Both the position numbers and the translations under genes were made by a program. Shown piece after piece: positions 2,792-37,315 of a stretch of DNA of 37,315 bases. The DNA lies in NCBI GenBank assembly GCA_014802705.1, contig JAAVBR010000007.1, positions 1-37,315 on the forward strand, written 5' to 3'. The notes under the pieces were generated by a model that was not told the origin of the DNA, did no database searches, and was given only the letters and a program-made list of their open reading frames with translations. The stretch is from a bacterium. GTDB lineage: Bacteria; Pseudomonadota; Alphaproteobacteria; Rs-D84. Within the stretch, counting starts at the first letter, position 1, and every line of letters starts with the position of its first letter.

Positions 2792-4433
2792 CAATAAATA
2801 CCTATCCGGCCTGTATCAGTTCTTGGGATGGGCGATCAAATACGCGACATGGGACAATCCCATTGTGCGTGGCACAGACGCGGCGATCAAGGCGGTTTCG
2901 GCGACGCCCGCGATGCCCCAGGAAACATGGTTTGAACGTCATTCCACGGTTGCGGCGCGTGTGGTTTGGTGGTGCGCATTGTGCGGCGCCCTGTTGAAAG
3001 AGGGGACCATTGATGTCGCCCCCGTCGTGGATGCCATGGGCCATTGGATCACACAGAATAATTTTGAAGATCTGAAATTAAATCCCAAAAATTCCGAACG
3101 CTGGGCGGATGCGGTGGTGGGGATTCATCCCTATGTCTTGGCGCATATTATTTCCAGCGAAGGGTTTATTGAAAAGGCCTATGACGACAATGGGGGCAAT
3201 GGGACGTTGACCCTGGGCAGTGGATTTACCATCAACGATAAAATACATCGTGATTTTGCAAAAAAAATATTGGGCCGCCATGTGGGAAACGGGGCGTCTA
3301 TTACCGTTGCGGAAAATCGGATCTTGGTATCCGAATGGTTAAAACAAAAAATCTATCCCCAAATTCAACAGAATCTGACCCGATCCATCGACAGTCGTCT
3401 GTTTGTGATTTTGGCGGTGGCGGCGTATAACAAAGGGTCCAATACCTATGCCCCTGGCAACAGCGGCCATCCCGTGATCCAGGCCATCAATGACGGCAAA
3501 AGTCCCGACGAAATTGCCGCGACGTATGTGCGGGCCTTTTCGGGAATCCAGGGCACCAAGTGGGGGGGGCTGCCCAACAAATTTGGTTTAAGCGCCCTGT
3601 ATTATCAGGGGGCGGTGCAAGACACAACGATTTTGAATGCCATTGCCGAGGCACCCTATACCCTGGAAAAACATATTCGCCAGAATAATAATCGGCTGGT
3701 GACCTATGACAACAAAACGAATGCGGCGCGGGCCAATGGATTGTATAATCCGGGTAATATTGATTCACTGATGCTGTTGACCAAATACCGCAAGACCCAG
3801 GGAACCGCTCAAGAACCGGTGAAAAATTATTTAACCCCGCATCAATGTGATGTGATTCAACAGGGAAAATTGGCGGCCCATGTGGCGGATTTCCAGGATT
3901 CGATTGTTCATGTCACCCCCCAGAAAATGGATGCGTCGGATGAGTTAAATGCCGCCGGCGAAGAATTTTATTTTGATAAAAAGTATGCCCAGGCGGTTGA
4001 AAAATTCAAAGCGGCCATCCAGAAAAAACCGCAGAATTACATCGCATACAGCAATTTGGCCATTTCATATTACAAAATGGATAAATACGCCGATGGGTTA
4101 AAGGTGGTCCAGGATCTGATCAAATCATCGCACTTTGCGGGCATGCCGGACGACATTCGGGGCTATACCTATTATAATGTGGCGTTGTGTCGGATGGCCC
4201 TGGGGGACAATGCCCAGGATACCACGGCCGCCGCGGAACATTACACATTGGCCCGGGCAAATTTAAAGTTGGCCGAAAAATTCAGCGGCTGTGTGCACGA
4301 AGACATGCGCAAAACGTTGGATGCCAAAATAAATCCGGCGCCGCATATGCGCGCCGCCGCGGCCAAGGTCAAAAGCCAATCGGCCCCCCAAAAAGGCCGG
4401 GCGCCCGTGCGTCCCAAACAAGAGGGCAGATAA
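2772..4433 (+). CDS. membrane-anchored GH24 (T4-lysozyme-like) muramidase domain protein with C-terminal TPR repeats, paralog A
   Basis: SSEGFIEKAYDDNGGNGTLTLGSGFT reproduces the Glu-8/9-Asp-5-Thr spacing of the T4 lysozyme catalytic triad. A hydrophobic segment VVWWCALCGALL is present. The C-terminus is TPR-like (FYFDKKYAQAVEKFKAAIQKKPQNYIAYSNLAISYYKMDKY). The start at 2772 is chosen over 2697. Confidence 0.7.
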   Translation: MAKEIRNNKYLSGLYQFLGWAIKYATWDNPIVRGTDAAIKAVSATPAMPQETWFERHSTVAARVVWWCALCGALLKEGTIDVAPVVDAMGHWITQNNFEDLKLNPKNSERWADAVVGIHPYVLAHIISSEGFIEKAYDDNGGNGTLTLGSGFTINDKIHRDFAKKILGRHVGNGASITVAENRILVSEWLKQKIYPQIQQNLTRSIDSRLFVILAVAAYNKGSNTYAPGNSGHPVIQAINDGKSPDEIAATYVRAFSGIQGTKWGGLPNKFGLSALYYQGAVQDTTILNAIAEAPYTLEKHIRQNNNRLVTYDNKTNAARANGLYNPGNIDSLMLLTKYRKTQGTAQEPVKNYLTPHQCDVIQQGKLAAHVADFQDSIVHVTPQKMDASDELNAAGEEFYFDKKYAQAVEKFKAAIQKKPQNYIAYSNLAISYYKMDKYADGLKVVQDLIKSSHFAGMPDDIRGYTYYNVALCRMALGDNAQDTTAAAEHYTLARANLKLAEKFSGCVHEDMRKTLDAKINPAPHMRAAAAKVKSQSAPQKGRAPVRPKQEGR

Positions 4434-24210: not shown

Positions 24211-24239
24211 TGGATAAAATCAGCGGAACCTGATATAAT
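24211..24239 (+). promoter_or_regulatory. sigma70-type promoter of cassette copy 3
   Basis: TGGATA, 17-nt spacer, TATAAT with an extended -10 TG (TGATATAAT). Confidence 0.55.
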
Positions 24240-24381
24240 CCGTGGGCTAGAGGGCGAAAATACTATGCCTAATCCAAAGGGACGTTTGCATACAACAAAA
24301 TTCCCAAAATAAAAATCCCCAATTTCCGCATCTTTTCCCCCTGATTTTATGCCTAATCCAAACGTCGGTTTGTTTTCGGCA
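24217..24381 (+). repeat. conserved promoter/leader/mini-ORF cassette, copy 3
   Basis: From TATAAT (24234) to 33 nt inside the ORF it is near-identical to copies 1 and 2. Mini-ORF 24265-24312 encodes MPNPKGRLHTTKFPK. Confidence 0.9.
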
Positions 24382-25018
24382 TCTGGCGCCCACGCCCAGA
24401 TGATTTGTGGGGATTATACCCCAAGTGGTACAAATTCGGGCGAGGGATTTTTGGGGAATAATGAGGCTGTGTATGTGATCGATTCGGAGCTCATTGATTT
24501 AAACAAGTACCGGGTAGCCGCCCATTGTCTGGAATGTGATAAAATTGAGGATATAAATAACGGTTACAAAAGAGCCACAAATTGCACGTACAAGGAAGCA
24601 TTGTGCCCAGGGGAATATTTTCTTTTTAGCCAGGCCGATCAGAAAACGTGTTATCCGTGCGGCACTTATGAATCTAGTTTAACTTATCGGGATTACACAA
24701 ACTTTCATAAGGAAATAGGAAATAATTGGCTAAGTTCGGCGACCAGTTGTGATTATTGTCTGTCTGGCTATTACCGCAGTGGGGCGCCCTGTGTTCCATG
24801 TCCTACGACCCAAAATATACCCGTCGAATCAGTAACAGTGGTGTCGGTGGCGTCTTGGGGGGGACGGTGGCGTTGAAACGTGTTTTCTGGCGATTTCAAC
24901 AGATAATCTGGAAAACGTGACCGGCAATGATGAATCGGGTACCTTTGTTCGATCGTATGAACGACATGAAATCGGTGATCTTTTGGGGATGGAAACTGTT
25001 ATCTGTCCCTATCAATAA
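24349..25018 (+). pseudogene. Cys-rich protein family member 3, interrupted by a frameshift at a G7 tract (pseudogene, phase-variable, or recoded)
   Basis: Frame 0 (24349-24876) ends shortly after G7 (24857-24863). The +1 frame continues ...DGGVETCFLAISTDNLENVTGNDESGTF...VICPYQ* to 25018, supplying the family's conserved C-terminal C-[YF]...D..G...C.Y end. Confidence 0.65.
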
Positions 25019-25101: not shown

Positions 25102-25395
25102 ATGATGCCAAAATGCGATTTTAAAGAGGATTTAGAGGTTGTCTTGTTGGACAGTCCCGTTGGAAATTGTTCCAAATGTATTTTCCACGAATGTTTTCAG
25201 ATCTGTGATAACTATATGATCTGTCGGGATGATAACGGCATGGCGGTCAATTGGAAAATGCGGCGCGGGGGGCAATGTGATGCCATTTTGGCGGCGCAAT
25301 ATGCCTGTAATCGTGGTGTGGATACACAGAATGTATGTCGTCAAAAGATCGCGGCGGCGATTCGTGCCCGCTGTGACCAAGAATATTCGGCCTAA
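25102..25395 (+). CDS. small Cys-rich hypothetical protein, paralog A (97 aa)
   Basis: GNCSKCIFHECFQICDNYMICRDDNGMAVNW...VCRQKIAAAI. It has its own promoter and SD and lies in an AT-rich stretch. Confidence 0.55.
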   Translation: MMPKCDFKEDLEVVLLDSPVGNCSKCIFHECFQICDNYMICRDDNGMAVNWKMRRGGQCDAILAAQYACNRGVDTQNVCRQKIAAAIRARCDQEYSA

Positions 25396-25399
25396 TGAT

Positions 25400-25681
25400 A
25401 TGAAACAGAAATTTGATACGTACGATTTTTATATGCAATTAAAGCCGGTGCCCATCGCGGCGACGGGGGATTGCATGTTTTGTGTGTTTCGGAATTTGCC
25501 CGGCTATTGCGAACAAATGGTGTGTCGCGACGATAATTATCGTCATGTTTATTGGACATTTCGTCATGCAACCGCGTGGGAGGCATTAGATATTTTTAAC
25601 AACGCGGCGATTCGCAAAATTGATATTCCGGCCGCCTGTCGGCGCAAAATCGCCCAGGCATACGGCGTGCATAACAAATAA
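25400..25681 (+). CDS. small Cys-rich hypothetical protein, paralog B (93 aa)
   Basis: GDCMFCVFRNLPGYCEQMVCRDDNYRHVYW...ACRRKIAQAY aligns with paralog A. The internal ATG at 25400 of ORF 25229-25681 is used. Confidence 0.5.
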   Translation: MKQKFDTYDFYMQLKPVPIAATGDCMFCVFRNLPGYCEQMVCRDDNYRHVYWTFRHATAWEALDIFNNAAIRKIDIPAACRRKIAQAYGVHNK

Positions 25682-36821: not shown

Positions 36822-37315
36822 TCAGGGTTGATAATAGCATGTTTGACTGGCATAGGTGCCGGTTGAATCTGTCTGGATGCCAGTTAAAACATAACAGTCG
36901 GTAATGGATTGACTGTTATAACCTGAACCAGCAGTTCTGGTTGCGTCCTCTGGGCACTTTACACACGATGAGCCGTTTTTATAATAACCTAGGTCGCAAT
37001 AATTGCATGAGCTGTTGGTGTGTAGAGAATCTAAATATGTTACTGCGCCGTTGGGGTCACTCCCAATATATCCTTTGGGACAAAAAACGCATCCATAAGG
37101 ATTATAAGAGGAATTGTACATGCATTTCAGACTGCTAAAATCAATGGTTCCTTGTGAAAATGTAAATAAAGGCGCCTGGGAATAATCGACGGGGGGAACG
37201 CATTCAATACAAATATGACTAAACCCCTGTGACATCATCCATCCTAATTGAGAGGTTAGATTCGTAATGGATACAAAATTTCCGCCCAAGTAACTAAAAT
37301 CTTGTGGGACTTCGC
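36822..37315 (-). CDS. Cys-rich protein family member 4 (5' end outside window)
   Basis: The frame is open to the window edge beyond the listed TTG at 37289. The C-terminus CNYCDLGYYKNGSSCVKCPEDATRTAGSGYNSQSITDCYVLTGIQTDSTGTYASQTCYYQP matches members 1-3. Confidence 0.7.
   Translation of the reverse strand, partial: EVPQDFSYLGGNFVSITNLTSQLGWMMSQGFSHICIECVPPVDYSQAPLFTFSQGTIDFSSLKCMYNSSYNPYGCVFCPKGYIGSDPNGAVTYLDSLHTNSSCNYCDLGYYKNGSSCVKCPEDATRTAGSGYNSQSITDCYVLTGIQTDSTGTYASQTCYYQP

Follow-up and report, generated by a model that had tools for sequence, protein, structure and literature searches.

Downstream of the HlyIII gene, the window (the whole 37,315-nt contig C7 of the metagenome-assembled genome G000; assembly of 835 kb in 73 contigs, 53% G+C, 86% completeness) encodes a member of a Cys-rich secreted family, here called member 3, that is split between two reading frames at a run of G. 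Proteins 77-93% identical to that encoded by the adjoining HlyIII gene were identified in MAGs from the guts of animals and humans that are named Candidatus Enterousia or uncultured Alphaproteobacteria. Enterousia, a member of the order Rs-D84, has a genome size of about 0.75-1 Mb (PMC12306168). The contig identifier (ena:ERZ27267591:k119_62244) follows MEGAHIT-style naming, and the contig is taken from this naming to be a short-read (MEGAHIT/Illumina) assembly.

Direct reading of the window sequence confirmed that the run is exactly GGGGGGG and that it lies 77% along the gene. The assembled open reading frame encodes 175 amino acids and closes with the codons ...TCT TGG GGG GGA CGG TGG CGT TGA, where the TGA (24874-24876) is found three codons past the run. 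Removal of one G yields a product of 222 amino acids, ...SWGDGGVETCFLAISTDNLENVTGNDESGTF...VICPYQ, that ends at a TAA codon (25016-25018) followed directly by a second TAA, and the +1 frame after the run is free of stop codons up to that point. The extra G is the only lesion in the 222 codons, and the resulting frameshift costs the protein its final 51 residues and, with them, the final two conserved cysteines of the family's C-terminal module. The positions of the run and the open reading frame, and the translation, as given in the initial annotation of this DNA, were all correct when the coordinates and frames were re-read. The features of the locus are compiled in Table 1.

Table 1. Features at and upstream of member 3 (positions in the window) and clusters of the ATGCCTAATCCAAA site on other contigs of the genome.
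Feature	Position	Strand	Description
Promoter-like site	24211-24239	+	TGGATA-17-TATAAT with TG extended -10; consensus scan 10/12, pattern match only
Left inverted-repeat arm	24265-24291	+	27 nt, imperfect, 78% complementary to 24356-24382; holds site ATGCCTAATCCAAA
Putatively invertible segment	24281-24366	-	86 bp; SD AGGGGGA (24342-24336), ATG (24331-24329), signal peptide MRKLGIFILGILLYA
Assembled ORF	24349-24876	+	N-terminal three quarters of member 3; after ..SWG four out-of-frame residues (GRWR), then TGA
Right inverted-repeat arm	24356-24382	+	Overlaps apparent start MPNPNVGL (ATG 24349)
G7 run	24857-24863	+	+1 frameshift site; G6 (TGG GGG GAC = W-G-D) is the in-frame form
Displaced C-terminal end	24863-25018	+	51 codons and stop in the +1 frame: DGGVETCF...NDESGTF...VICPYQ
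Multi-site ATGCCTAATCCAAA clusters (G000)	C48:1765/1798/1850; C55:1012/1045/1096; C30:1568/1620; C66:2116/2168/2201; C60:3983/4016/4067

Both halves of the split gene are homologous to, and colinear with, the same paralogue and the same family model. The closest paralogue of member 3 in the genome (C45:4472, 225 amino acids) aligned with the upstream frame to residue 171 of both proteins (..SWG; E 3e-11), and its residues 173-224 (..CPYQ) aligned with the downstream frame. An HMM of the C-terminal module of the family, built with member 3 left out, matched the upstream frame at model positions 1-25 and the downstream frame at positions 30-58, such that the module pattern C..C.xGYY....C..CP...G....CY....D.(T/S)G......C(Y/P)Y is divided between two frames in member 3. 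When the tract was rebuilt at other lengths, G6 gave a score of 26.6 bits (E 5e-6, positions 1-53) and G9, which also restores a product in one frame, gave 25.0 bits, whereas G5, G7, and G8 gave truncated products with scores of about 17-18 bits over positions 1-25 (16.8 bits for G7). These results bear out two proposals of the initial annotation, namely that a +1 frameshift at the run of G divides a family member and that dropping one G gives back the conserved end of the family (222 residues, 26.6 versus 16.8 bits).

Genes that start with MPNPNVGL are repeated across the genome, and one subfamily of them ends in the C-terminal module. This module was detected in 51 of the 61 Enterousia genomes sampled, with as many as 35 copies in a single genome of about 1 Mb. 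The description of the family as variable and secreted or surface-exposed is correct. In searches against Pfam with curated cut-offs, member 3 scored 16.1 bits for both VSP (cut-off 31.4) and TNFR_ELAPOR1_6th (cut-off 33.2), below threshold in each case, while six of 19 family modules matched Ephrin_rec_like (PF07699) at E ≤ 0.01 (best 3.5e-8). Judged from sequence, the likeness of member 3 to Ephrin_rec_like and to the Cys repeats of Giardia VSP-type proteins is a resemblance, with membership below threshold.

Minimal members of the family, from other Enterousia species (loci L040-L048), consist of a signal peptide and a single module of ~60 amino acids in frames of 86-97 amino acids. The existence of such members suggests that the module is an autonomous unit. 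Module-bearing frames of 86-134 amino acids in other species were considered as frameshifted relatives of member 3 and rejected, since they are complete small proteins with a signal peptide and one module. Elsewhere in the window, another member with a full C-terminal module (36828-37313, minus strand; 57 bits) runs past the contig end, and its start and switch are missing. On the plus strand are two tandem small paralogues (25102-25395 and 25364-25681; 97 and 105 amino acids), whose common Cys pattern closes with M(I/V)CRDDN. There is no Pfam match on record for this pair, and the syntenic region, compared across 80 Enterousia genomes, yielded no relative.

The region immediately upstream of member 3 has the organization of an invertible switch. 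The site ATGCCTAATCCAAA is present in two copies, 84 nt apart, within the inverted-repeat arms; in the left arm it reads as a mini-ORF, MPNPKGRLHTTKFPK followed by a stop. In silico inversion of 24281-24366 yields AGGGGGAAAAG ATG and brings MRKLGIFILGILLYA in frame with NVGLFSASGAHAQMIC..., and the inverted start of member 3 reads AGGGGGA-N4-ATG MRKLGIFILGILLYANVGLFSASGAHAQMIC. The same site is found 84-85 nt 5' of 22 family genes, and in silico inversion at all 22 MPNPNVGL genes produces a Shine-Dalgarno sequence, a start codon, and a near-identical signal peptide from segments of 86-87 bp. In the assembly, all 22 (member 3 among them) are in the OFF orientation, and family members that lack the site have ordinary signal peptides. 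This arrangement leads us to infer that the 86-bp segment physically inverts. It also suggests that the ATG at 24349, which the initial annotation had used as the start of the gene, is probably not the real start and that MPNPNVGL is the conceptual translation of a recombination-site repeat.

The genome encodes two serine recombinases (213-216 amino acids) and three tyrosine recombinases. The serine recombinases (C33:3865-4293 and C22:4976-5401) are candidate enzymes for the 86-bp switches and are of the size of Hin/Gin invertases. The ATGCCTAATCCAAA site also occurs between divergent family genes as inverted pairs 33 nt apart with a third copy adjoining. Such clustered sites (Table 1) suggest, from their layout, multi-site (shufflon-like) inversion, and a tyrosine recombinase gene (C55:1901-2359) adjoins the cluster on contig C55.

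The G7 run of member 3 is unique within the family in this genome. No G or C run of at least seven was detected in the 37 other family genes of the genome (26.5 kb), where the longest run is six, and a single G7, in frame, was detected among 46 family genes of other Enterousia species (26.7 kb). A search of other members for poly-G tracts, which the initial annotation had suggested as a check on contingency switching, therefore returned none of 37 in this genome and one in-frame tract among the 46 homologs of the genus. At the homologous Trp-Gly, C45:4472 reads TGG GGG ACC and is in frame without a shift, and GGG accounts for 33% of the Gly codons in this genome. Since GGG is common and the closest paralogue also encodes TGG GGG, the run of member 3 appears to be a by-product of coding for Trp-Gly-Asp that is one base longer.

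Genome-wide, 75 runs of at least seven G or C were observed, as compared to about 112 expected from base composition. Sixty-one of the 75 are exact 7-mers, and six fall inside the window. Sixty are in frame in long ORFs, 14 are at gene edges or intergenic, and only the run in member 3 has the signature of a frameshift, defined as a long frame that ends just past the run while another frame takes over. The same test flagged five G6 runs, all of which are gene junctions or non-coding frames, and none of about 286 coding G6 runs shows a frameshift. The test was uninformative for A/T runs, since A runs at the ends of normal genes overlap with the stop codons. The lack of frameshifts at the other 60 coding runs of at least seven and at the G6 runs suggests that the assembly is not prone to homopolymer indels. 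Likewise, the finding that 60 of the 75 runs are in frame in ordinary ORFs suggests that a G7 is no marker of contingency genes in this genome.

A longer tract was identified outside of the window. On contig C70, a G12 (C70:10471-10482; about 1424-1435 of locus L134) occupies the 18-nt spacer that separates TTGCGA from TAGAAT, 66 nt 5' of a gene for a protein of 236 amino acids (C70:10548-11258) with a signal peptide and a resemblance to outer-membrane beta-barrels. This G12 is a much better candidate for slipped-strand variation than the G7 of member 3. It was considered as a sign of a general strategy of simple sequence repeats, and this was rejected: the homologous genes of six other Enterousia species are without the tract. 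One of these six homologs has a G8 at its ribosome-binding site.

Genes for mismatch repair are intact in the genome, with frames of 862 amino acids for MutS and 630 amino acids for MutL. In a reporter in wild-type, repair-proficient Neisseria meningitidis, the rate of change from G7 to G6 was 6.5e-10, as compared to 2.4e-8 for G8 and 1.2e-7 for G10, and the G7 rate rose to 1.9e-7 in a mutL mutant (PMC4085013). The wild-type figure for G7, from the one organism in which it was measured, falls well short of the rates typical of phase variation. Natural tracts in Neisseria span 7-19 nt (PMC4085013), PhasomeIt applied a cut-off of at least nine G to Neisseria (PMC5953494), and Campylobacter surveys counted phase-variable tracts from a length of at least seven (PMC4965091). 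By these yardsticks, which come from other organisms, the G7/G6 pair would be at or below the edge of tracts treated as phase-variable. A return from G7 to G6 could in principle take place, but with MutS and MutL in the cell its rate would probably be close to that of ordinary mutation.

Other copies of the locus were sought in several collections. A search of a public protein collection with member 3 found only itself, and DNA patterns with exact flanks and 5-9 bases at the tract had no matches in genome or metagenome contig collections. Searches of 30 relatives recovered weak paralogous matches only. In 80 Enterousia genomes, the syntenic slot that follows HlyIII is either empty or occupied by other family members, and none of the 80 has member 3 there. 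Directly 3' of HlyIII, differing and highly divergent Cys-rich members were observed at seven loci (L054, L055, L056, L090, L104, L116, and L125; about 3300-3700 in each). The slot is a conserved hotspot of insertion and turnover in several Enterousia species.

Collectively, these observations suggest that member 3 is probably a young pseudogene of a Cys-rich secreted family of Ca. Enterousia that arose by recent +1 slippage of G in a silent copy, a reading that we hold with moderate confidence. Specifically, an ancestral TGG GGG GAC (Trp-Gly-Asp), with a G6 of the kind that is present by the hundreds in the genome, would have gained one G through replication slippage, and this G would have removed the last 51 residues of the protein. 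The mutation may then have persisted in a gene that was silent anyway, the 86-bp segment holding the ribosome-binding site, start codon, and signal peptide in reverse orientation. The G run would be the place of the lesion and not a device. Selection is relaxed on a copy that most cells keep silent in the OFF orientation, which would explain why the frameshift is tolerated. We infer that the G7 allele is real and not an assembly slip, and that the tract switches at no useful rate. A fixed pseudogene was among the alternatives listed in the initial annotation, and it is the one that we prefer. The damage is a clean single-base event in an otherwise undamaged gene.

The initial annotation had instead favored slipped-strand phase variation on the basis of the homopolymer, and under this explanation a toggle between G6 (ON) and G7 (OFF) would act as a second, translational switch atop DNA inversion. 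The frameshift does fall exactly at a homopolymer in a gene that is otherwise intact, which is also how an OFF phase variant would look, and the family is a variable secreted or surface one that reaches 35 copies in some genomes of ~1 Mb. Since the family is clearly of a contingency type, the prior for extra layers of switching is higher; moreover, the G12 on contig C70 indicates that long tracts do occur in this genome. Some surveys accept a G7, which is at the lower edge of the tracts reported for Campylobacter (at least seven; PMC4965091) and Neisseria (7-19 nt; PMC4085013). However, the tract does not recur in the 37 paralogs or the 46 homologs of the genus, runs of this length are not enriched and are mostly in frame in ordinary ORFs, and the ON length is just a G6 made of plain Trp-Gly-Asp codons. 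The tract is also far from the 5' end of the gene, the genes for mismatch repair are present, and a G7 changes at a rate of about 1e-9 in a repair-proficient bacterium (PMC4085013). We consequently regard phase variation of member 3 as unlikely. The specific combination of two stacked stochastic switches on member 3, in which inversion of the start codon and signal peptide is joined by an independent poly-G frame toggle, appears slightly less likely again. An assembly or sequencing error, in which the organism truly has a G6 and an intact gene of 222 codons, is similarly doubtful. Homopolymers are the commonest sites of indel errors, the contig is one of 73 in an incomplete MAG, and the collections searched hold no independent copy of the locus. 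Nevertheless, the naming of the contig points to MEGAHIT and Illumina data, no other coding G or C run of at least six carries a frameshift, and an error placed at random would hit a family gene in ~5% of cases (16 of roughly 300 coding G6 runs), whereas a genuine frameshift would be expected to last only in a gene that the cell can spare. That the sole frameshift falls in a dispensable, silent paralog leads to a real mutation being favored by roughly an order of magnitude.

Recoding, whether programmed +1 ribosomal frameshifting or transcriptional slippage at the run, would produce full-length protein from the G7 template. Within G GGG GGA, a tRNA-Gly decoding GGG can move ahead by one base and pair again without a mismatch, and the +1 frame is open and homologous. 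Yet C45:4472 is in frame at the same site and needs no shift, and neither the protein search nor the syntenic slot of 80 genomes provided an ortholog in which conservation might be evident. The shift site is without a stop or an obviously slow codon, the stop of the 0 frame being three codons on; the downstream RNA folds no better than shuffled sequences (z = 0.17); and a search against Rfam returned no matches. Known cases of transcriptional slippage in bacteria involve long A/T runs. The suggestion of +1 ribosomal frameshifting in the initial annotation thus finds no support in the paralog, the folding comparison, or Rfam, and recoding of either kind is very improbable.

If member 3 is a pseudogene, then it is best annotated as a frameshifted gene of 222 codons with its true start on the inverted segment rather than as a protein of 175 amino acids starting with MPNP. 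A single-base slip that disables one dispensable paralog is routine genome decay and carries little weight alone. It does serve as a negative control, in that finding a homopolymer where a gene is broken does not by itself indicate a contingency switch, and it contributes a small data point on the build-up of lesions in silent copies of an inversion-controlled family (one in about 38 here). Were the switches stacked after all, individual members could be withdrawn from the expressible set and returned to it at a later time. Reads with a mixture of G6 and G7 would make member 3 a modest case, in an uncultured symbiont of the gut, of phase variation in layers.

The intragenic poly-G/C loci of Campylobacter jejuni, Neisseria, and Haemophilus resemble member 3 in that a G run within the frame toggles, by one base, between full-length and truncated products. 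However, the tracts at those loci are typically at least eight in length (the Neisseria cut-off being nine), as compared to a G7 with G6 as the ON form here. Those tracts also recur across paralogs and strains at varying lengths and are over-represented, whereas the tract of member 3 is unique in its family and runs of at least seven G or C are under-represented across this genome. Campylobacter contingency tracts act without mismatch repair, whereas MutS and MutL are present here. With respect to the upstream region, the invertible promoters of Bacteroides fragilis (Mpi), the vsa genes of Mycoplasma pulmonis, and the mba genes of Ureaplasma likewise place short segments bounded by inverted repeats before many genes of a family. 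The segment described here, the inversion of which is predicted in silico, differs in its content, which is not a promoter but the ribosome-binding site together with the start codon and the signal peptide. Lastly, the non-phase-variable or inactivated homologs in the phase-variable modules of Neisseria (PMC5953494) offer a further comparison. The putative switch in Enterousia is a small invertible segment with a start codon and signal peptide and not a repeat tract, and the host is an uncultured gut alphaproteobacterium with a reduced genome. Like those homologs, though, member 3 is one copy with a single inactivating indel among intact siblings in a large, fast-diverging surface or secreted family, where a lesion in an unexpressed copy is tolerated.
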